NCBI GenBank assembly: GCA_030616475.1 | Contig: JAUWXF010000002.1 | Location: 18 to 64,017 of the forward strand | Source of the DNA: Desulfobacterales bacterium | Lineage (GTDB): Bacteria > Desulfobacterota > Desulfobacteria > Desulfobacterales > C00003060 | Direction of reading: 5' to 3' | DNA length: 64,000 nucleotides | Shown here: positions 4,052 through 52,042 of the stretch, in pieces | How positions within the stretch are numbered: position 1 is the stretch's first letter | Layout: each line of letters opens with the position of its first letter | Made by a program: the position numbers and the translations under genes | Notes under the pieces: generated by a model | Databases searched by the model: none | What the model saw: only the letters and a program-made list of their open reading frames with translations | Told to the model about the DNA's origin: nothing

Positions 4052-4146
4052 AGGAATCTTTAAGGAATTAAGGAATTGAGGGATTGAGGGATTGAAGACA
4101 CCACCCGTTTTAATTCCTAAATTCCTAAATTCCTAAATCCCAAAAT
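4052..4146. repeat. hairpin of tandem heptamers (AGGAATT / GGGATTG arm versus AATTCCT arm)
   Basis: aggaatctttaaggaattaaggaattgagggattgagggattgaag ... ttaattcctaaattcctaaattcctaaatccc. A sister copy lies at 41562-41630. Confidence 0.85.
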
Positions 4147-6712: not shown

Positions 6713-6847
6713 GACCTGCCCGCCATTGCCAGAGACCTGCCCGCCATTGCCACGCATGCTGGCATTGAAGCTGCCCGCTGTGCCTGGCGAAGGCAGGCGG
6801 GTGCCGGCACATAAGCTGAATGCTGTCTCAGGCGTTGGCAGGCGGGT
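6713..6847 (+). repeat. GC-rich CTGCCCGCC element, copy A
   Basis: gacctgcccgccattgccagagacctgcccgccattgcc ... ggcaggcgggtgccggcacataagctgaatgctgtctcaggcgttggcaggcgggt. It is nearly identical to 34998-35132. Confidence 0.9.
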
Positions 6848-6976
6848 ATTCGATATTCGTATTTTCTTATTGGCTTCGTGCCTCGTCGGCCCGCCCTGGC
6901 GCGACACGCTGGCGAGAGGCTATCACGCTCCCCAACCAGGTCTGGGCCAGGGTTTGAGGCGAAGCTTCGCTAGAAT

Positions 6977-34833: not shown

Positions 34834-35149
34834 GGAAATACGAAGCACGAAATCCGAAATTCTAAACAAATTCAAATATTAAATGCTCAAATGTTCAAAA
34901 TTCTATGAGCGGTCTCAAGCTCGATTGAATCAGCCTTCGGCGGGTCTTATCGTTTTTCAATTTTGAATTTCCGTCATTCGATATTGTTTCGGATTTCGAC
35001 CTGCCCGCCATTGCCAGAGACCTGCCCGCCATTGCCGTGTATGCGGGCATTGCAGCTTCCCGGCGACCGTGGCGTTGGCAGGCGGGTGCCGGCACATAAG
35101 CTGAATGCTGTCTCAGGCGTTGGCAGGCGGGTATTCGTATTTCGGATTT
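34834..35149. repeat. composite nested-hairpin element with a GC-rich CTGCCCGCC core (copy B, core 34998-35132)
   Basis: The outer arm aaatacgaagcacgaaatccgaaat pairs with ttcgtatttcggattt. The core is nearly identical to 6713-6847. Confidence 0.9.
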
Positions 35150-35201: not shown

Positions 35202-35299
35202 TGGCGGAAGTGCATGGGAATCGAACCCACCCGGGACGGTTTTAGCGCCCCACACCGGATTTGAAGTCCGGGAGCCCCACCAGTGAGCTATCCACTTCC
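35202..35299 (-). tRNA. selC: tRNA-Sec (anticodon TCA)
   Basis: The reverse complement is GGAAGTGGATAGCTCACTGGTGGGGCTCCCGGACTTCAAATCCGGTGTGGGGCGCTAAAACCGTCCCGGGTGGGTTCGATTCCCATGCACTTCCGCCA. It has a long acceptor stem, a CTTCAAA anticodon loop and a long extra arm. It aligns well with E. coli selC from memory. Confidence 0.9.
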
Positions 35300-36911: not shown

Positions 36912-38081
36912 ATGGGAATGAAGATCGCCTACTTTGACTGTTTTGCCGGGATAAGCGGCGACATGATTCTCGGTGCCTTGATCCATCTTGGGGTGCCTGG
37001 AGATTTCATTGAAGAGAATGTCCGCAACATGCCCCTTGAGGCCTTTGATTTGGAGATCAGCACGGCGGCCCGTATGGGGATTCACGGCAGACAAGTAGAA
37101 GTCGTGGTTGCCGATAGAGACAAACCAGCCAGGAATTATCAAGACATAAGGTCGCTTGTCGACAACAGCCCCCTCCCGGACACGGTAAAAGGCTTGAGCC
37201 TTAAGATCTTTGGCAGGCTGGCCGAGGTTGAGGCGTCTATCCACAACTGCCCCAAAGAGAGTGTCCATTTTCATGAATTAGGCGGTGTAGATGCTATTGT
37301 TGATATCGTGGGGGCTGCTCTTGGTGTGGAATGGCTTGGCATTGGCAAGATTTCCGCTTCAGAGATTCCAGTGGGCAAAGGGTTTGTGAGCTGCCAGCAT
37401 GGGAGACTTCCAGTGCCGGCCCCTGCCACCCTGGCCCTCCTTGACGGCGTGCCGGTCTACGGCACAGGAGTTTCCAACGAACTGGTTACACCCACCGGCG
37501 CTGCGATTCTTACAACGCTTTCTCAAGATTTTGGCCCAATGCCCAAAATGCTGATTCGTGAGATCGGTTACGGCGTGGGGGCGCGTGATTTGAAAGAGAT
37601 GCCAAACCTGCTCAGGGTTGTGCTTGGGGAGCCCGATTTTGCGTGTGAGGCAGATTGTGTGACAGTCGTTGAGACCAACATAGATGACATGAATCCCGAG
37701 ATATTCGGCTTTGTCATGGAGAGACTCTTTGAAGATGGGGCCCTTGATGTGGTCTTGATTCCCGTCTTTATGAAGAAAAACCGACCCGGGACCATGGTGC
37801 AGGTTATATGCAAGGAGACTGATCGAGAGACCGTTGTGCGCCGGATTCTTTCGGAGACCACGGCTACCGGGGTGCGGCATTACCGGACGGGGCGATCAAA
37901 GCTCCCACGAAAGGTCAAAGAGGCCACTACCTCCTATGGCAAGGTGCGTGTAAAGGAGGTTTCAGGTCCCACAGGCAGGATTTCTGTGGTACCTGAATAT
38001 GAGGACTGCAAAAAGATTGCTTTGGAGAAGAACGTACCTCTGAAGGTGGTGTATGAGACTATTGTGAAGGAGACGGCGTAG
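36912..38081 (+). CDS. larC: nickel-pincer cofactor biosynthesis protein LarC (DUF111)
   Basis: 389 aa. MKIAYFDCFAGISGDMILGALIHLGV is the hallmark N-terminus. The likely start is the ATG at 36918. Confidence 0.85.
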   Translation: MGMKIAYFDCFAGISGDMILGALIHLGVPGDFIEENVRNMPLEAFDLEISTAARMGIHGRQVEVVVADRDKPARNYQDIRSLVDNSPLPDTVKGLSLKIFGRLAEVEASIHNCPKESVHFHELGGVDAIVDIVGAALGVEWLGIGKISASEIPVGKGFVSCQHGRLPVPAPATLALLDGVPVYGTGVSNELVTPTGAAILTTLSQDFGPMPKMLIREIGYGVGARDLKEMPNLLRVVLGEPDFACEADCVTVVETNIDDMNPEIFGFVMERLFEDGALDVVLIPVFMKKNRPGTMVQVICKETDRETVVRRILSETTATGVRHYRTGRSKLPRKVKEATTSYGKVRVKEVSGPTGRISVVPEYEDCKKIALEKNVPLKVVYETIVKETA

Positions 38082-38125
38082 GATTGACGATTGACGATTG
38101 ACGATTGATGATTGACGCTTGACGG
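38082..38125. repeat. tandem heptamer GATTGAC/GATTGAT x6
   Basis: gattgacgattgacgattgacgattgatgattgacgcttgacgg fills the whole larC-pgpA spacer. Confidence 0.9.
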
Positions 38126-38626
38126 ATGTACGTGCAAGGAGAACGTAGGGCTGGTGGCAAGGCGTTGCATAGGATCGGCGAAAAATGTGTGGTTTTGTTG
38201 GCAACAGGCTGTTATGCAGGATACATTCCCATTGCCTCCGGGACGTTTGGCACCCTAATTGCGATTCCTATCTGTTATGTCATTTCCATGTTTGGCCCAT
38301 TTCAGGGCCTGCTAGTCATAGCGGTATTTTCGGGATTTGCCGTATGGATGTCAGGTAAAGCAGAGAAGGTATTCAACAAGAAAGACAGCGGCTTGATTGT
38401 TATAGATGAGATGGCAGGGTTGCTGGTCACCTTGTTTCTCATTCCCTGGAGCGCTATGAGTGTGGTCATCGGTTTTTTTCTCTTCAGGCTCTTCGATATT
38501 GTCAAGCCCTTTCCCATCAGGAGGCTGGAAACGAAATTGCCGGGTGGGTGGGGTGTAGTCGGCGATGACGTCCTTGCAGGCATTTATGCCAATGTCATTT
38601 TAAGAATCATTGTGGTATCATTTTAG
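38126..38626 (+). CDS. pgpA: phosphatidylglycerophosphatase A
   Basis: 166 aa. It has GYIPIASGTFGTL, IDEMAG, FRLFDIVKPFPIR and GGWGVVGDDVLAGIYA. Confidence 0.85.
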   Translation: MYVQGERRAGGKALHRIGEKCVVLLATGCYAGYIPIASGTFGTLIAIPICYVISMFGPFQGLLVIAVFSGFAVWMSGKAEKVFNKKDSGLIVIDEMAGLLVTLFLIPWSAMSVVIGFFLFRLFDIVKPFPIRRLETKLPGGWGVVGDDVLAGIYANVILRIIVVSF

Positions 38627-38644
38627 TTTTTTGAAACGATCGTC

Positions 38645-38848
38645 GCGAGCAGGTGATTTGATTCTAAACCGGCTCAAACTCGGGCAAAAGTGGGTGTAAA
38701 GAAAGAACTATGAATATCATTAAACATAGCATCAATGGGGGGGACATCGTCTTACAGTTAGGACAAATGTGCGGATTTGCCGTTCTTTCTTAACACTCAC
38801 TAATGCCCTCACACAGTGAGCCGCTTTAGAATCAAATCACCTGCTCGC
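38645..38848 (+). repeat. 204-nt long-hairpin element, copy 1 (MITE-like or structured RNA)
   Basis: It has perfect 24-nt terminal inverted repeats, gcgagcaggtgatttgattctaaa / tttagaatcaaatcacctgctcgc. The inner arms ccggctcaaactcg...gtaaagaaagaac / gttctttcttaac...gagccgc are conserved with copy 2. Confidence 0.85.
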
Positions 38849-38908
38849 TCCATTGGCTCACTCGTTCAAAAGGCTAAATGTATACTCATTGTGAAGTTTT
38901 TCTAGATC

Positions 38909-40425: not shown

Positions 40426-41442
40426 ATGGGTAGCATATCCATGGACAAGGAGAAGGCGGTCGAACTGGCCATGGGGCAGATAGAACGCCAGTTCGGCAAG
40501 GGTTCCATAATGAAGTTGGGCAGCCAGGTGGTTGCGGACGTCCCGGTTATTCCGACCGGATCGCTTGCCCTGGACCACGCTTTGGGCGTCGGAGGTATTC
40601 CGCGAGGGAGGGTTGTAGAGCTCTTTGGTCCTGAATCCTCGGGCAAGACGACGCTGGCTCTTCACATCGTGGCGGAGGCCCAAAAACAGGACGGCATCGC
40701 GGCCTTCGTGGACGCTGAACATGCCCTGGATGTCAAGTACGCCAGAAAGCTGGGGGTAAACTGTGACGATCTGCTGGTTTCTCAGCCTGACACGGGTGAA
40801 CAGGCCCTGGAGATCACCGAAGTCCTGGTGCGTAGCGGGGCCATGGATGTCGTGGTTATTGATTCTGTGGCCGCCCTGGTGCCCAGAGCAGAGATTGAAG
40901 GGGAAATGGGTGATGTGCACGTGGGCCTGCAGGCCAGGCTTATGTCACAGGCCTTGAGGAAGCTGACCGCCAGTATCAGCAAATCGATGACCTCGGTTAT
41001 CTTTATCAATCAGATTCGGATGAAGATAGGGGTGATGTTCGGCAATCCTGAAACCACGCCAGGGGGGAATGCCCTTAAATTCTATTCCTCGGTTAGGCTT
41101 GACATCCGAAGGATTGGGAGCATCAAGGACGGCCAGGAGGTTATCGGCAGCCGGACCCGCGTGAGAGTAGTCAAGAACAAGGTGGCACCCCCTTTCAAAG
41201 ACGGGGAGTTTGACATCATGTACGGCGACGGGATCTCGACTGCCGGCGACCTTCTTGACATGGGGGTTCAAACCAATGTCGTCGATAAGAGCGGGGCCTG
41301 GTACTCCTTTGACAAGGAACGGATTGGTCAAGGCAGGGAGAATGTCAAGAGCTTCTTGAAGGAAAATCCTGACGTATCTGCTCGTATCCTGGAGAAGGTG
41401 AGTAAGGCCCTTGGACTGGCAAAGGAAAAATCTGATGATTGA
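40426..41442 (+). CDS. recA: recombinase RecA
   Basis: 338 aa. It has [21 protein letters not shown] and [19 protein letters not shown]. Confidence 0.97.
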
Positions 41443-41708
41443 TGATTGATGATTGACGATTGAATATTGACGATTGACTAATGACCAATGACTAATGACC
41501 ACTGACTGTGGAGAAGTGAGCCAAAGTGTCTAACCCTGACAAGCCGGAATTTTGGAATCGCAAATTTAGGAATTTAGGAATTGTGTCTGATTTTAATCCC
41601 TTAATTCCTCAATTCCTGAATCCTGTAATCTCTTCTAACTTTAGCTCACTTTAGGCACTCCGTTATTGACCAATAACGAATAACGAATAACGAGTCACGA
41701 ATAACGAC
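41434..41708. repeat. recA-alaS spacer filled with several word-repeat blocks
   Basis: The blocks are gatgattgatgattgatgattgacgattgaatattgacgattgactaatgaccaatgactaatgacc; aatttaggaatttaggaatt ... ttaattcctcaattcctgaatcc; and caataacgaataacgaataacgagtcacgaataacgac. Confidence 0.9.
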
Positions 41709-44348: not shown

Positions 44349-44757
44349 TTATTGAATATTGATTATTGAATATTGGCTATTTAGGCATCCTTCATTTTCG
44401 CCATAAAGTAGTTTACACCTATTGACCAGTGTTCAGGTTTCAGTGTTCAGGTTTCAGGTCTTGCTTTTTCAGTTCCTGACACCTGATACCTGGTGCCTGG
44501 TTTCAGTGTTCAGGTTTCAGACCCGCCTGCCAACGCCTAGGTCACACCGAGGTTACAATGCCCGCATACACGGCAATGGCGGGCAGGTCTTGCGTTTCTC
44601 GCTCCTGACACCTGACACCAAAAAGTACGAACAAAAGAATTTATCTCTTGGCGCCCGCATTCTTGAAAAGTGTAAACCGAGGAATGAAGGATGCCGCTAT
44701 TTAATGATCAAGAGATTCTTCTTTCAATCGTCAATCGTCAATCGTCAATATTCAATC
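44346..44757. repeat. nested-hairpin composite element with a short inverted CTGCCCGCC core (44521-44590)
   Basis: The outer arms are ttattgaatattgattattgaatattg / caatcgtcaatcgtcaatattcaatcc. The inner arms are gttcaggtttcag repeats / cctgacacctgacacc. The core reverse complement is gacctgcccgccattgccgtgtatgcgggcattg...ggcgttggcaggcgggt. Confidence 0.85.
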
Positions 44758-44760
44758 CTG

Positions 44761-45949: not shown

Positions 45950-46236
45950 CGCCCGGTCTGAGCCAAAGCCCGCCCTGGTGCGATTCGTTCATATATATTG
46001 ATCTGGGCTATGCATCATTACACACCTGACTTTTTGAGTATAAAGTATTGGTGATCGGTCTGGCCCAGACCGGGTTTTTCACTCTGTGGCATTCTCCATC
46101 TTCTGTCGCGCCAGGGCGGGCCGGGTTTTTCTTCCCTGGGTATGGTCCAACTTCTGTCGCGCCCCTGGCCCAGACCGGGATGATAGGGACGGCACATCAA
46201 TGCTAAAGCTGTCGCGCCAGGGCGGGCAGGGCGGGC
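45950..46236. repeat. GC-rich direct/inverted repeat cluster (TGTCGCGCCAGGGCGGGC and CTGGCCCAGACCGGG modules)
   Basis: cttctgtcgcgccagggcgggc, cttctgtcgcgcccctggcccagaccggg and gctgtcgcgccagggcgggcagggcgggc, plus the palindrome ggtctggcccagacc. Reverse-complement modules occur at 6893-6950 and 2224-2306. Confidence 0.85.
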
Positions 46237-46371
46237 TTTAGGCACTTTAGTTCACTTTAGGCACTTTTTTTTGGTTCCGGCATGTCCGTGTCCGGGTATC
46301 CCATAGTATAATCTTCCAAATAAGTCAAAAGAAATCTATCAATTTAGCCTATTGAAAAAGCGAGCCTAACG

Positions 46372-46578
46372 AGCATACAGGCAATCCGATTCTAAAGCGG
46401 GTCTCTGTTTGAGCGTATTAGTGAGCGTTAAGAAAGAACAGCAAAGTGACATATTCTTTCTAAGGGTCAAATGATATCCGCCATAATCGAGGTTACTTAC
46501 AAAAGTCGGTCCCTGTTCTTTCTTTACGCTCACTTATGCGCGAGTTTGAGCCGGTTTAGAATCGGATTGCCTGTATGC
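46372..46578 (-). repeat. 207-nt long-hairpin element, copy 2 (inverted relative to copy 1)
   Basis: It has perfect 24-nt terminal inverted repeats, gcatacaggcaatccgattctaaa / tttagaatcggattgcctgtatgc. The inner arms are homologous to 38645-38848. The central roughly 70 nt is unrelated. Confidence 0.85.
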
Positions 46579-46693
46579 GATAATGTCTTCAAAGAACTAA
46601 AATGTTACAAGAAATCTTTTTGACATCAGCCCTGCTGTGGTATAATAAGATGTTTAAAAGGAAGGAAATTAGACCATATAGAAGGCTTGCACC

Positions 46694-47880: not shown

Positions 47881-48028
47881 CGATTGATGATTGAAAAAGA
47901 CAATCAACAATCACAAATCGACAATCGACAATCGACAATCGACAATCGGAAAACCAATAACCAATAACCAATAACCAATAACGAGCTTTTAAATCCGCAA
48001 TCCGCATTCAGAAATCCGAAATCGAAAC
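47881..48028. repeat. aminotransferase-hom spacer made of word repeats
   Basis: The blocks are cgattgatgattg; gacaatc-type x7 (47899-47949); aaccaat-type x4 (47951-47983); and aaatccgcaatccgca ... aaatccgaaatcgaaac. Confidence 0.9.
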
Positions 48029-48038
48029 GGGTGTTGAG

Positions 48039-49346
48039 ATGAAGAAAATACACGTTGGTTTGTTGGGGTTCGGAACCGTGGGGTCTGGGATGGTAAAGAT
48101 CTTGCTGGAAAACCGCGAGGTGATCGAGTCGCGCCTTGGGGCCTCTCTTGCACTAAAATGGATAGCCGTCCGTGAGCTTGGAGGGGACCGGGGAGTCGCT
48201 GTGGATGCCAGCCTGCTTACAACAGACGCCGAAACGGTCATTGATGACCCTGAGGTTGACATTGTCGTGGAGCTCATTGGCGGTTATGAACCGGCAAAGA
48301 GCTTCATCTTGAAAGCGATTGAAAACGGGAAACATGTCGTTACGGCCAACAAAGCGCTTCTGGCCGTACACGGGCATGAAATTTTTTCCGCAGCCTCGCA
48401 AAGGGGTGTGGAGGTAGGCTTTGAGGCAAGCGTGGGCGGTGGAATCCCCCTGATTCGATCGATAAAGGAAGGCCTGGTTGCCAACCATATCCAAAGTCTT
48501 TTCGGTATCCTGAATGGCACTGCCAATTATATCTTGACCAAAATGACCGACCAGAGAATCCCCTTTTCAGAGGTATTGAAGGAAGCTCAGGCACTCGGCT
48601 ATGCAGAGGCGGATCCCACCTTCGACATCGAAGGGATCGACACGGCCCATAAACTGACCATACTTCTTGCCATCGCCTATGGGGTACCCATAGATTTTGA
48701 TGCAGTCTATACAGAGGGGATATCAAAGGTCACACCTCTGGACATCAAGTTCATAAAAGAATTCGGATACCGTATCAAACTCCTGGCCATCTCAAAAGAC
48801 GATGGCGGGGCGGTCGAGGCCAGGGTACATCCCACACTGATACCGGAGGACAGTATGCTTGCCAATGTGAATGAGGCTTACAATGCCCTTTACATGAAAG
48901 GGGATGCAGTGGGCAACGTGATGCTTTATGGAGCCGGGGCTGGAATGATGCCCACAGGCAGCGCTGTGGTAAGCGATCTGGTAGATGTTGCCCGCAATAT
49001 ACTAAGAGGTGCGGTGGGAAGGGTGCCGTCTGTGGGGTATCAGCCGGCAGGTACCAAGGCAAGGCGGATCAAGTCAATTGAAGAGCTTAAGACCGAGTAT
49101 TATTTTCGATTTTCAGCCGAAGACAGGCCAGGTGTACTTTCCAAGATTTCGGGGATTCTCGGAAAGCATCAGATCAGCATCAAATCAGTCCACCAGAAAG
49201 GGCGAGACCTAGTGGGCGCCGTACCCATTGTCACGATTACCCATGAGGCCAAAGAGGCGGCCGTACGGAAGGCCCTTTCGGAAATCGATCAACTTGAGGT
49301 GGTCAAGGACAAGACCGTTCTGATCCGGATTGAGGATTGGAGATGA
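48039..49346 (+). CDS. hom: homoserine dehydrogenase
   Basis: 435 aa. It has VGLLGFGTVG, NGTANYILT and a C-terminal ACT domain. Confidence 0.92.
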   Translation: MKKIHVGLLGFGTVGSGMVKILLENREVIESRLGASLALKWIAVRELGGDRGVAVDASLLTTDAETVIDDPEVDIVVELIGGYEPAKSFILKAIENGKHVVTANKALLAVHGHEIFSAASQRGVEVGFEASVGGGIPLIRSIKEGLVANHIQSLFGILNGTANYILTKMTDQRIPFSEVLKEAQALGYAEADPTFDIEGIDTAHKLTILLAIAYGVPIDFDAVYTEGISKVTPLDIKFIKEFGYRIKLLAISKDDGGAVEARVHPTLIPEDSMLANVNEAYNALYMKGDAVGNVMLYGAGAGMMPTGSAVVSDLVDVARNILRGAVGRVPSVGYQPAGTKARRIKSIEELKTEYYFRFSAEDRPGVLSKISGILGKHQISIKSVHQKGRDLVGAVPIVTITHEAKEAAVRKALSEIDQLEVVKDKTVLIRIEDWR

Positions 49347-50725
49347 AATATGTCATCCTGGTAGGCGACGGTATGGGGGATTACCCCATTGCCGAGCTTG
49401 GAGGAAAGACCCCACTTACGGCTGCGCTTACTACGCACATGGACTGGATAGCCGACCATGGAGAACTCGGTCTGGCACGAACCATTCCAGAGGGGTGCGA
49501 GGCCGGAAGTGATACGGCCAATTTGAGTCTCTTGGGATACGATCCGAAAGCGACCGTGACGCGGCGGGCCCCATTAGAGGCGGCCAGCCTTGGCGTCGAT
49601 CTATCTGAGACAGATGTGGCCTTCCGGTGCAATTTAGTCACCCTCTCCACCCAAAATGGCGTATTGACCATGGACGATTATAGCGCTGGCCACATCAGCA
49701 CTGATGAAGCCCGGGAGATTATCGAGGACCTAGACAGGGCCTTAGGAGATGAGACATTTCGGTTTTATCCTGGCGTGAGCTACCGGCATCTTATGGTCTG
49801 GCACGGCGGGGCGGCAGAGATTGATACCACGCCTCCTCACGATATTACAGGCAAGGCGGTCCGCCCCTACCTGCCCGCCAACGCTCTCGTCCGTGCGCCT
49901 CGCAAGGCCTTGGCAAGCGGGCAGGCTCAGGCCTGCCCGCCAGTGCCAGGCGACCTGCCCGCCAATGCCTTATGTGCCGGCATTGCAGTTACCCGGCGAG
50001 CGTGGCGCTGGCAGGCGGGTGGCAGGCGGGCGAGGCAGGCGGGTTTGGATCGTATGACCTCTCACGGGGTGTTGCTTCAACTCATGGATCGTGCAGGAGC
50101 AATCTTAAAAGATCATCCGATCAATAAAAGGCGCATGGAAAAAGGGCTGAAACCGGCCAACCATATCTGGTTCTGGGGGCAGGGGCATGTCCCTCAACTG
50201 GAGGCTTTCGAAGAGAAGACAGGGCTTAGAGGGGCCATCATTTCTGCCGTAGACCTCTTGAGAGGGATTGGTGTTTATGCAGGGCTTGAGGTGATAAGGG
50301 TTCCGGGTGCCACCGGGTATTTTGATACCGATTATGAGGCCAAAGCAGCGTATGCCCTGTCGGCCCTCAAAGGTGTTGACTTAGTCTACGTGCACGTGGA
50401 GGCTCCGGACGAGGCAGGGCACGCCGGTTTGCTGGATAAAAAGATCTCTGCTATCGAGTCATTTGACGCCTTGGTCGTGGGGAAGGTGTTAGATGGGATG
50501 AAGGGCTTTTCGGAATTCCGTATCATGGTGGCAACGGATCACTATACGCCTATCTCTGTTAGGACGCATACCATAGAACCCGTGCCGTTTGCCATTTTTG
50601 GCACAGGCATACGCAGCCCACTGCATGGTTCTGGTGGTTTCAGCGAGGAAAACGCTGAGGCCAGAGCCGTGTTTGTCTCTGATGGTTACAGGCTCATAGA
50701 ACGATTGATACGGTTTTCCAAATAA
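49343..50725 (+). CDS. cofactor-independent phosphoglycerate mutase, archaeal ApgM-type (alkaline-phosphatase superfamily), carrying a repeat-derived insertion
   Basis: MKYVILVGDGMGDYP...PPHDITGK...HVEAPDEAGH are typical ApgM motifs. The ATG at 49343 overlaps the hom stop (ATGA). It is about 60 aa longer than the roughly 400 aa I expect for this family. Confidence 0.85.
   Translation: MKYVILVGDGMGDYPIAELGGKTPLTAALTTHMDWIADHGELGLARTIPEGCEAGSDTANLSLLGYDPKATVTRRAPLEAASLGVDLSETDVAFRCNLVTLSTQNGVLTMDDYSAGHISTDEAREIIEDLDRALGDETFRFYPGVSYRHLMVWHGGAAEIDTTPPHDITGKAVRPYLPANALVRAPRKALASGQAQACPPVPGDLPANALCAGIAVTRRAWRWQAGGRRARQAGLDRMTSHGVLLQLMDRAGAILKDHPINKRRMEKGLKPANHIWFWGQGHVPQLEAFEEKTGLRGAIISAVDLLRGIGVYAGLEVIRVPGATGYFDTDYEAKAAYALSALKGVDLVYVHVEAPDEAGHAGLLDKKISAIESFDALVVGKVLDGMKGFSEFRIMVATDHYTPISVRTHTIEPVPFAIFGTGIRSPLHGSGGFSEENAEARAVFVSDGYRLIERLIRFSK
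49870..50044 (+). repeat. GC-rich CTGCCCGCC element inside a coding sequence (copy C)
   Basis: cctgcccgccaacgc...gcgacctgcccgccaatgccttatgtgccggcattgcagttacccggcgagcgtggcgctggcaggcgggtggcaggcggg aligns with the intergenic copies at 6713-6847 and 34998-35132. It is translated as PANALVRAPRKALASGQAQACPPVPGDLPANALCAGIAVTRRAWRWQAGGRRARQAG. Confidence 0.85.
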
Positions 50726-50767: not shown

Positions 50768-50844
50768 TGCGGGGTGGAGCAGTCTGGCAGCTCGTCGGGC
50801 TCATAACCCGAAGGTCCGTGGTTCGAATCCATGCCCCGCTACCA
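50768..50844 (+). tRNA. tRNA-Met (anticodon CAT), initiator-like
   Basis: TGCGGGGTGGAGCAGTCTGGCAGCTCGTCGGGCTCATAACCCGAAGGTCCGTGGTTCGAATCCATGCCCCGCTACCA. The D-arm and anticodon arm are identical to E. coli tRNA-fMet as I recall it. There are three G-C pairs next to the CTCATAA loop. The 1:72 position is mismatched (U.U). Confidence 0.9.
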
Positions 50845-50851
50845 AATGATT

Positions 50852-52042
50852 TCAATGGGTTAACCGATTTTGGTTAACCCGTTTTTCGTTGTTAGACTGC
50901 TCAGGGTGCAGGGGGGGTGCAGATGGGTGCAGAAAGTCTTGATCATCCAAGGCATCCACTTCATCTTTTTTCTTGCCCGGCATCCAGTGAGAATACACGT
51001 CTAAGGTCAGCTTTGTTGAACTGTGTCCAAGCTGATTTGAAACGTCCTGAATGTTGTCACCTTTGGAGATCCTCAAGGTCGCGTAAGTGTGACGAAGATC
51101 GTGAATCCTGATTCTTAACCCTGCCTTTTTCAGAGCTTTGTTGAATACCCTACGTCGCCAATTATCCTTGTCGATAGGGTTGCCATTGTCGTTCGTAAAG
51201 ATGTACTCAGGAAGGTCCCCCAGGCCCAGGGCAAGACCTTTCTTTTTGCTTTCAAGCTCGTGAGCCTTCAATCTCTTTGCAAGCTGTAGGCTCATGTCAA
51301 CGGGCCTGTCCTCACCGTTTTTAGGTGTGGTGATCTTTCCTCTAACAAGACTCCGCTCAACACTTATGAACCGGCCAGTAAAATCGATGTCACCCCATCT
51401 CAAGGCCAGTGCCTCCCCGATCCTCATGCCGGTACGGGCCAACAGCAGGAACAAAGTGTAATGCTCAGGGAAATGAGCCTGAACGATATCGAGTAACAGC
51501 TTCAACTCCTCTTTCGATAAAGGGTCTATGGCCTTCTTTTGTTTTTTCGCCTTAAGAACGTTCCTTCCGAGACTGTAGACGGGGTTTACAGGGATCACCT
51601 CGTCATCCAGGGCTTTGTTTAGCACTCCTGAGATAGTATCTTTCATGTGGCTTACAGTACTTTTGGCATACCCGTAGTTGATCTTATCAAGCAAGAAATC
51701 CTTGATCTTGCCTCGTGTAATGTCGGCCAGCTTGAGACTATCAAAAACCGGCAGCACGTGAAGCCGGAGAAGGTCCTCATAATCCCTGACGGTTGAATCT
51801 TTGCAGGTTGCAGGAACCGTGGTCCTGATCCATGAGTCTGCATACTCCTTGAACGTGGGGGCCGGCTTTTCTTCCTCAAAGCCAAACTCCCCGAGTTGAA
51901 GCTTTGTCCGGATCTCGCTTGCCACGGCCTGCGCGGCCGCTTTGTCGCCTACAAGCTTTGATGTCCTACTGCCATTATGGGCCACAAACACCCACCACGG
52001 CTTACCCTTGCCTTTATCCTTTTGTCTGACAGTAACGCCCAT
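50852..52042 (-). CDS. tyrosine-type site-specific integrase
   Basis: 396 aa. It has ARTGMRIGEALAL, HDLRHTYATL and GHSSTKLTLDVYSHW (R...HxxR...Y catalytic pattern). Its 3' end lies 7 nt from the tRNA-Met 3' end. Confidence 0.9.
   Translation of the reverse strand: MGVTVRQKDKGKGKPWWVFVAHNGSRTSKLVGDKAAAQAVASEIRTKLQLGEFGFEEEKPAPTFKEYADSWIRTTVPATCKDSTVRDYEDLLRLHVLPVFDSLKLADITRGKIKDFLLDKINYGYAKSTVSHMKDTISGVLNKALDDEVIPVNPVYSLGRNVLKAKKQKKAIDPLSKEELKLLLDIVQAHFPEHYTLFLLLARTGMRIGEALALRWGDIDFTGRFISVERSLVRGKITTPKNGEDRPVDMSLQLAKRLKAHELESKKKGLALGLGDLPEYIFTNDNGNPIDKDNWRRRVFNKALKKAGLRIRIHDLRHTYATLRISKGDNIQDVSNQLGHSSTKLTLDVYSHWMPGKKKDEVDALDDQDFLHPSAPPLHPEQSNNEKRVNQNRLTH

Follow-up and report, generated by a model that had tools for sequence, protein, structure and literature searches.

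The 64,000-nucleotide stretch of Desulfobacterales DNA analysed here (the window; contig JAUWXF010000002.1, positions 18 to 64,017 of the forward strand) contains the homoserine dehydrogenase gene, hom (48039–49346, plus strand), and directly downstream a gene for a metalloenzyme of the ApgM family (49343–50725, plus strand), which harbours, without loss of the reading frame, a GC-rich segment of 174 nt (49870–50043, plus strand) related to a family of 66-nt palindromic repeats. The assignment of hom is based on the list of open reading frames (ORFs), on the Pfam domains NAD_binding_3, Homoserine_dh and ACT found in syntenic genes and on the overlap with the following gene, whose ATG start codon shares the letters ATGA with the TGA stop of hom. 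The host gene is uninterrupted over its 460 codons, corresponding to 402 aa once the insert is subtracted, and encodes the domains PF10143 (PhosphMutase) and PF01676 (Metalloenzyme); both the open frame and the ATGA overlap had been reported in a preliminary description made from the letters of the stretch, and both are confirmed. The evidence makes it very probable that a mobile palindromic element inserted in frame into this hom-coupled gene and that the added segment is tolerated as a loop of the enzyme.

The host protein exceeds the cut-offs of three NCBIfam models, namely NF003242 (cofactor-independent phosphoglycerate mutase; 527 bits, cut-off 426), TIGR02535 ("proposed homoserine kinase"; 509.5 bits, cut-off 446.3) and TIGR00306 (496.9 bits, cut-off 320). 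TIGR02535 proteins are proposed replacements of ThrB, and their genes frequently neighbour other genes of threonine synthesis. The B. thetaiotaomicron member is BT2402; strains mutated in it require threonine, but an E. coli thrB mutant was not rescued by BT2402, whose activity is unproven (PMC7311316). The host gene resembles this branch of the ApgM family in scoring above its cut-off and in lying directly downstream of, and overlapping, hom; it differs in passing NF003242 equally. The order aminotransferase-hom-apgM, including the ATGA overlap, is kept in three loci retrieved for comparison (L001, L003 and L107). The TIGR02535 match fits the coupling to hom better than a glycolytic role does, and the gene is more likely to act in threonine synthesis than in glycolysis, as far as family models and gene order can tell. 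The family originally proposed, that of the ApgM-type mutases, is correct, and the gene can be flagged as a hom-coupled TIGR02535 member, which bears on the question of the missing homoserine kinase.

In a search of 5.8 billion proteins, the orthologues of the host protein were almost all 396–405 aa long, and about 120 of them have ~402 aa and lack the insert. Alignments of 16 and then of 70 sequences define the insert as exactly 58 extra residues after Tyr176, between ...PPHDITGKAVRPY176 and LDRMTSHG.... The empty site is found in L003 and L004, which encode proteins 91–92% identical to that of the window and read CCC TA|C CTG GAT; in the window, the 174 nt (58 codons) follow the TA of the Tyr176 codon, that is, they lie between its second and third base. 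The extra segment recognised in the preliminary description is thus real, and its extent has to be corrected from 58–61 codons ending at 50044 to 58 codons ending at 50043. The comparison of filled and empty sites reveals no target-site duplication: CCTG is common to the start of the element and to the apgM target, but it is element sequence in all the other copies and for this reason is not counted as a duplication.

At 73.6%, the GC content of the insert exceeds that of the remaining host gene (53.7%) and of the window as a whole (45.9%); the RNA of the insert is predicted to fold with −114 kcal/mol (z = −4.6), and stop codons are absent from all three forward frames. The possibility that the segment is a native loop specific to this lineage, for which only its being in frame could be adduced, is practically negligible: the segment is missing from the orthologues 91–92% identical in protein, its GC content is 20 points above that of the host gene and its DNA matches an intergenic repeat family with E = 3.6e-15.

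The unit of this family is exactly 66 nt, or 22 codons, long and is an imperfect palindrome of the form CCTGCCCGCC-N46-GGCAGGCGGG with a GC content of 66%; its signature is CCTGCCCGCC ATTGCC ... GGCG-N-T GGCAGGCGGG, and the gap between the arms is invariant at 46 nt in ~40 units. In the window, CTGCCCGCC occurs 9 times versus 0.33 expected, and none of 100 shuffles reaches 9. Three intergenic copies were detected by nhmmer. The first (6715–6846, plus strand) consists of a full unit (6736–6801) inside another (6715–6735 and 6802–6846) at AGAGA|TGCC; the second (35000–35131, plus strand), which adjoins a tRNA-Sec gene, shows the same two-unit nesting with the inner unit at 35021–35086; the third (44522–44587, minus strand) is a single 66-nt unit. 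Both nested copies are 132 nt long and hold a complete unit precisely within a complete unit. The earlier attribution of the insert DNA to an intergenic repeat family is borne out by the nhmmer match, by the CTGCCCGCC counts and by the shared units.

When single genomes representing each species were scanned, ~40 signature units emerged, all in metagenome-assembled genomes (MAGs) of Desulfobacterales/Desulfobacteria, including Co_bin7 (= GCA_030145035.1), CSMAG_1531, CSMAG_1091, SB_S3_bin18 and Eth-SRB1. Units were kept when they combined the 46-nt arm spacing with the ATTGCC/GGCGNT signature; about half of the 95 pattern matches, with other arm spacings and from GC-rich genomes, were discarded as chance. 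Single units fold into long imperfect hairpins. In a 19-pair register, 87.5% of the positions are paired across 42 units versus 32–45% when the register is slid, and double-sided changes number 38 versus 22±4 in shuffles, a modest covariation; two U·G positions are conserved in this register and render the hairpin strand-asymmetric. RNAalifold on the 42 units recovered only the arms already fixed by the search pattern. Rfam at gathering thresholds returned only tRNAs over the whole window, with no RNA family, intron or ribozyme on the insert or the repeats, and the arm sequences, sought in the text of publications, matched nothing apart from unrelated eukaryotic primers.

The insert itself combines about four units in a nested arrangement; one of them is complete and the others are truncated, the truncated pieces being assigned from the unit consensus and the nesting rules. 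The preliminary description was right about the family, and its single element has to be replaced by this composite, whose limits are those of the empty-site comparison. The outermost unit, U1, begins with the left arm CCTGCCCGCCA (49870–49880, plus strand), whose arm position is evident, and would be interrupted after ...GCCA| as in the series of a second gene described below. U2 (49881–49925, minus strand) would be the remnant of a reverse-oriented unit that ends in GGCAAGCGGGCAGG, the reverse complement of a left arm, and has lost its right arm; this reading is based on the reverse left-arm match at 49916–49925 and on the analogy to reverse-nested units in L101 and L014. The following CTCAGG (49926–49931, plus strand) is, judging from the unit consensus, probably an internal remnant of U1 that continues at 50031–50043 as CGAGGCAGGCGGG, the 3' end of the unit being CTCAGGCGTTGGCAGGCGGG for comparison. 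U3 is a putative internally deleted unit, with the left part CCTGCCCGCCAGTGCCAGGCGA at 49932–49953 (plus strand) and the right arm TGGCAGGCGGG at 50020–50030 (plus strand), the latter clear in its arm position and tentative in its assignment. It is interrupted, at or near the position used in the intergenic nested copies, by U4 (49954–50019, plus strand), a complete 66-nt unit that encodes LPANALCAGIAVTRRAWRWQAG, matches model positions 2–69 (nhmmer E = 3.6e-15) and is 87% identical to 35019–35088. The last segment (50031–50043, plus strand), again placed by its arm position, would be the right end of U1. The order of the nesting events is likewise a reconstruction, in which a non-autonomous GC-rich imperfect palindrome would have entered the Tyr176 codon between the second and third base, later units would have nested into the first, and partial deletions would have left the 174 nt.

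The same insert is present in other lineages. L107, which derives from a different metagenome sample, encodes a protein (P0153) with 97% identity to that of the window and carries the identical 174 nt at the same codon except for one substitution, located at window position 49965. A 72-nt insert occupies the apgM site in L001 (NCBI MAG) and L002 (JGI assembly), and the window insert minus 49921–50022 (102 nt) reproduces this form apart from one substitution; the 72-nt L001 insert contains two right arms and one forward left arm and is therefore read as an in-frame internal deletion derivative. A simple slipped-strand deletion was considered as the origin of the L001 allele and rejected, the GCAGGC direct repeats being 101 nt apart and the deletion 102 nt long. 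A short-read assembly that had threaded a repeat into the gene might be suspected for an element that is both repetitive and palindromic and that comes from metagenome assemblies. However, the insert has host-gene sequence on either side, the 174 nt recur in L107 with a host gene that has diverged at 33 of 1206 nt, and two further assemblies hold the derivative at the same site; in addition, the internal units are only 74–87% identical to other window copies and so are not collapsible repeats. Such an artefact is highly improbable, and the misassembly that the preliminary description had named as a way to fail is contradicted by these independent assemblies. The three insert-bearing lineages are approximately equidistant, with a synonymous divergence (dS) of 0.073–0.084, in comparison to 0.20–0.26 between insert-bearing and empty-site lineages; the insertion is placed in a common ancestor of three or more of the lineages sampled.

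The divergence that followed the insertion indicates that the gene is under purifying selection and is not a pseudogene. The window differs from L001 by 20 synonymous and 6 nonsynonymous changes, with a ratio of nonsynonymous to synonymous rates (dN/dS) of 0.09, and from L107 by 21 and 12 (dN/dS 0.17), while L107 and L001 give 0.10; moreover, none of the 85 positions invariant across the 70 aligned sequences is altered in the host protein. It could be argued that a decaying gene has not yet acquired a stop codon and that another copy provides the function, the more so because all three forward frames of the insert are stop-free and openness is cheap. Against such a pseudogene stand the dN/dS values of 0.09–0.17, the invariant columns, the coupling to hom kept in all lineages and the later 102-nt deletion of L001, which is again in frame; it is very improbable, and the comparisons of the apgM locus revealed no sign of pseudogenisation, in agreement with the intact gene proposed at the outset. 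These data suggest that the enzyme keeps working despite the insert.

AlphaFold2, run with the 70-sequence alignment, gave a model with a predicted template modelling score (pTM) of 0.81 and a predicted local distance difference test (pLDDT) above 90 for 320 residues. The pLDDT falls below 50 in one segment only, residues 177–237, corresponding to the insert plus two or three residues, and helix 235–256 directly follows the insert. By Foldseek, the model best matches the Pyrococcus ApgM structure 2zkt_B (E = 2.7e-34, TM(target) 0.89), and in sequence alignments with PDB entries the insert falls between chain residues 170 and 191. The prediction, confident for everything but the insert, supports a disordered excursion from an intact fold, as the preliminary description had supposed. 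Transcription and translation of the inserted DNA would accordingly yield a loop of 58 residues, rich in Ala, Arg, Gly and Pro and lacking a stable structure, that departs from the cap (PhosphMutase) domain just before helix 235–256, with the enzyme remaining functional.

The window and the loci retrieved for comparison were surveyed for ORFs spanning the units: 48 of 50 unit clusters are extragenic and two are credibly intragenic. The second intragenic case is an unrelated gene for a conserved hypothetical protein of 144 aa, often adjoining chemotaxis genes, whose homologues have lengths of 144, 164, 166, 188 and 210 aa and contain, at one site, zero, one, two or three nested units (+22, +44 and +66 aa). 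L103 (144 aa) has the empty site AGT GA|C AAT GGA, and L100 (166 aa) has exactly one 66-nt unit with no duplication; L104 (164 aa) carries the L100-type unit minus ATTGCC. In L101 (188 aa) a second, reversed unit is nested after CCTGCCCGCCA|, in L014 (210 aa) a third unit is nested after CCCGCCTGCCA| of the second, and L102 (210 aa) shows a different three-unit arrangement. In both genes the interrupted codon is completed by the first base of the element (TA|C, GA|C, AA|C), and the outer unit is translated as LPA...RRWQAG. In-frame insertion is a property of the family and not a one-off, and the search for further in-frame copies suggested earlier has in fact provided a stepwise series.

Other ORFs spanning units, in L030, L037, L074, L095 (minus strand) and L099, were rejected as genes, being low-complexity read-throughs with no family matches. 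In L095, an ORF for a multihaem cytochrome (682–1914; Paired_CXXCH_1, Cytochrome_C7) has two family units at its 5' end, which it traverses without a stop codon, and an ATG within the element (MAMAGRLSIVVMAAALIAIF...) would yield a plausible signal peptide, so that a unit might supply the gene start; it was left out of the intragenic count since its true start is probably downstream of the units. Searches at the protein level added little: an X-padded profile of the 22-aa peptide gave only 26 candidates and missed known positives, and an exhaustive peptide scan of 1.84 billion representatives at 50% gave 84 matches, all short ORFs or WD40/PQQ false positives. Such surveys say nothing about recent insertions, since the representatives of the clusters concerned are proteins lacking the insert. 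Dozens of database "hypothetical proteins" of 30–120 aa (P0154–P0224) are translations of the repeat (..GDLPAIA....RRWQAGG..) and constitute annotation artefacts, a warning for the annotation of genomes in which such entries merely translate a repeat.

All seven insert lengths known from the two genes (60, 66, 72, 132, 174, 198 and 198 nt) are multiples of three, and the same holds for those that are not whole units (60 and 72) and for the difference of 102 nt, which argues that selection filters the derivatives and that the inserts are translated. The reading frame would be kept because the 66-nt unit is a multiple of three, because the frames in use are stop-free and because selection passes only multiple-of-three derivatives. 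Evolution of the family towards coding neutrality is not strongly supported: frame +1, that of the outer units, is open in 26 of 40 units versus 24 expected from shuffles, and stop-free enrichment is limited to frames +2 (33/40) and −2 (39/40), the latter being the frame of the reversed units.

A different fate of the segment, present in the DNA and absent from the product, would require that ribosomes bypass it, as they do in T4 gene 60 and in the "byp" elements of mitochondria, or that it be removed from the RNA or the protein. The very stable hairpin (−114 kcal/mol) and the C-CTG that brackets the L001 insert on both sides could be taken in this sense. In contrast to the programmed bypass elements, the lengths of all alleles in two genes, including 60, 72 and 174 (72 + 102), are constrained to multiples of three, which neither bypass nor splicing would need, and codons that would match as take-off and landing points are absent from the second gene; furthermore, the right-hand CTG has become TTG in the window, Rfam finds no intron or ribozyme and the 58-aa low-complexity peptide (including ALASGQAQACPPVPGDLPANALCAGIAVTR) has no intein motifs. 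Bypass or removal is, on balance, quite improbable.

As regards the chemistry of insertion, the unit is flanked by A on the 5' side in 31 of 40 cases and by T on the 3' side in 31 of 40, and the empty sites assign these flanking bases to the target. Duplications are absent from three comparisons of filled and empty sites, namely apgM, the 144-aa gene (AGTGA|CAATGG versus 66 nt in L100) and the unit within a unit (AGAGA|TGCC). Insertion is shown to be precise, at A^T or A^C, without duplication and often into the element's own arm. The lack of duplication, the fixed unit length, the strand-asymmetric hairpin and the minimal 5' target base fit HUH/Y1 transposition (PMC3116915, PMC3337134), and mobilisation in trans, most plausibly by a single-strand HUH/Y1 transposase of the IS200/IS605 or RAYT (REP-associated tyrosine transposase) type, is a candidate mechanism that we infer with about equal weight for and against. 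No Y1_Tnp homologue occurs in the window. The 66-nt unit does not flank a 303-aa Y1_Tnp gene with a helix-turn-helix domain in L003, nor the 173-aa Y1_Tnp gene of L105 and L106, which has a different palindrome, GTGGGAGCGGCTTTCCAGCCGCGAC, at its sides. In the latter loci (L105:6533-7600, L106:4373-5455) this RAYT-like gene stands between inverted GTGGGAGCGGCTTTCCAGCCGCGAC palindromes, the classical REP-RAYT layout, in the same organisms, for another family.

Some points weigh against a mobile element tolerated as a passive loop. A mobilising gene was not found, and in the 0.8 Mb of fragments searched the 66-nt unit does not flank the Y1_Tnp genes of related contigs; that the insert is translated is deduced from the conservation of the frame; the structural view of the insertion point comes from pLDDT and secondary structure only; and a second copy, or another enzyme with the same job, may exist elsewhere in the genome, as the pseudogene explanation would need. 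Finally, the insert differs at 1 of 174 nt between the window and L107, in comparison to 33 of 1206 nt in the host gene (dS 0.077), and a purely passive, unconstrained loop does not predict such conservation. If the insert evolved at the synonymous rate, the Poisson probability of one difference or fewer would be 2e-5; with the average rate of the gene it would be 0.05; Fisher's test of the insert against the whole gene gives p = 0.11, which is not significant. The numbers are small, and a slow evolution of the insert is a possible consequence of hairpin constraint, of conversion from other copies or of function.

The last of these would mean that the insert has been co-opted, either as an RNA structure tuning the hom-apgM mRNA or as a loop functioning at the protein level, which is compatible with a mobile origin. 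Besides the single difference noted above, the window-L107 substitutions approach the insert closely (6 nt upstream and 2 nt downstream), so that a recent recombination tract is not obvious. Fisher's test speaks against co-option, as do the loss of 102 nt of the insert in the equally constrained L001 lineage and the lack of peptide structure in the AlphaFold model, and a mutational or repair bias imposed by the hairpin, or gene conversion from other copies, could yield the same pattern; co-option thus appears unlikely. A bolder proposal is also rather doubtful, namely that the 66-nt unit is a modular, stepwise 22-codon "loop-expansion cassette" for the proteins of this clade, targeting its own arms, and that selection keeps the apgM insert, in line with an evolution much slower than that of the host's synonymous sites. 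If true, the insert could have been selected as an RNA structure within the operon that sets the ratio of hom to apgM expression, or as an appendage with a function in the protein.

Among the known elements, the family looks like repetitive extragenic palindromes (REPs) and their hairpin-forming doublets (REPINs), an analogy drawn from its architecture. As in these elements (PMC3116915, PMC3337134), the units are short GC-rich imperfect palindromes with inverted arms at fixed spacing that form a hairpin; the copies are mostly extragenic, clustered and nested in a manner similar to bacterial interspersed mosaic elements (BIMEs); target-site duplication is absent; and G·U positions are conserved in the hairpin, which is strand-asymmetric. 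In contrast, a cognate RAYT flanked by 66-nt units was not found in the fragments covered, and REPINs are defined as extragenic while the 66-nt units also lie inside genes in frame. The likeness to bacterial MITEs (miniature transposable elements with inverted repeats) concerns the non-autonomous character, the inverted-repeat ends, the stem-loops and the occasional in-frame fusions; typical MITEs, however, are AT-rich, have target-site duplications and derive from identifiable insertion sequences (ISs), whereas the 66-nt unit lacks a duplication at three sites. No parent IS with 66-nt-unit ends was seen in the window or in the retrieved loci, which do not cover a full genome.

Rickettsia palindromic elements (RPEs) are ~100–150 bp long, belong to an AT-rich obligate intracellular genus and were found in ORFs in nearly half of the copies first described (Ogata et al. 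2000, summarised in PMC10969869). The comparison with RPEs made in the preliminary description is apt for the way of working: in both cases small palindromic repeats lie between genes and, in frame, inside unrelated protein genes that are still functional, the added peptide is tolerated, and here too the same frame and peptide recur (LPA...RRWQAG), with a second gene offering an in-frame series of zero, one, two and three units. The likeness is not expected to extend to the sequence. The unit is 66 nt long with 66% GC and occurs in free-living Desulfobacterales; moreover, 2 of ~50 clusters are intragenic here, whereas RPE-1 is not mostly extragenic, and the units described here nest into themselves, giving steps of 22 aa.

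In-frame fusions of MITEs or palindromes are known for RPEs, intragenic ERIC sequences (the repetitive intergenic consensus of enterobacteria), QMITE1 and Anabaena MITEs (PMC10969869), so that fusion by small palindromic elements is not new in kind. What differs is a REP/REPIN-like 22-codon unit without duplication that nests into itself within ORFs, with alleles for each step; no description of such an element was found for Desulfobacterales. Rickettsia is the best-known case of selfish palindromic repeats that invade genes in frame, a process discussed as a way in which proteins gain new segments. Here a REP/REPIN-like element leads to the same outcome in free-living bacteria of Desulfobacterales type, whose alleles capture the empty site, one, two and three units and a later in-frame deletion. 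The apgM gene can be regarded as a natural test of the amount of foreign loop that a metabolic enzyme accepts, and the filled and empty sites provide a basis for working out the transposition chemistry of an undescribed repeat family.

An unrelated insert occurs in another orthologue of the host enzyme, P0099 (485 aa; gene L108:423-1880), in which 255 nt (85 codons, 834–1088) are inserted in frame elsewhere in the gene, following ...KIGSD close to residue 137. This insert consists of ~7 tandem 33-nt (11-codon) hairpin units of the form TCCCCCTTT...AAAGGGGGA, translated as PPLKKGD/SPSEKGG repeats; the small palindrome TCCCCCTTT...AAAGGGGGA also flanks 66-nt units in L031, L086 and L092. A second repeat family of the window, GGCCCGCCCTGGCGCGACA...GGTCTGGGCCAGGG, is found at 6886–6955, beside the 66-nt family copy 6715–6846, and in two or three tandem copies near 46100–46230 (46050–46230, minus strand). 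Short tandem intergenic repeats of 7–8 nt, e.g., (TTGACGA)n, (AATTCCT/AAATTCCT)n and (AAATCCG/ACGAAAT)n, often lie directly beside palindromic units; they were located at 38070–38134, 41425–41503, 44724–44759, 4060–4145, 41550–41628 and 47991–48021, and related contigs have similar arrays, e.g., TTGAGCAGTTGAGTGG and CACAGGCTTGATTGTTC in L105/L106. The tRNA-Sec gene (35202–35299, minus strand; Rfam 74.6 bits, ARAGORN anticodon TCA) is 70 nt from the repeat copy 35000–35131.

Downstream of the host gene, at a distance of 43 nt, lies a tRNA-Met gene (50768–50844), immediately followed by an ORF for a 396-aa phage-type tyrosine integrase (50852–52042, minus strand). L001 and L107 have, unlike the window, a gene for an NAD-dependent epimerase downstream of apgM, and the window lineage probably acquired an island integrated at tRNA-Met. 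Two long inverted repeats (38597–38884 and 46337–46626), ~7.5 kb apart, are complementary over 146 nt at 74% and over 112 nt at 77%; both hold an internal palindrome of ~30 nt and may bracket a mobile or duplicated segment.

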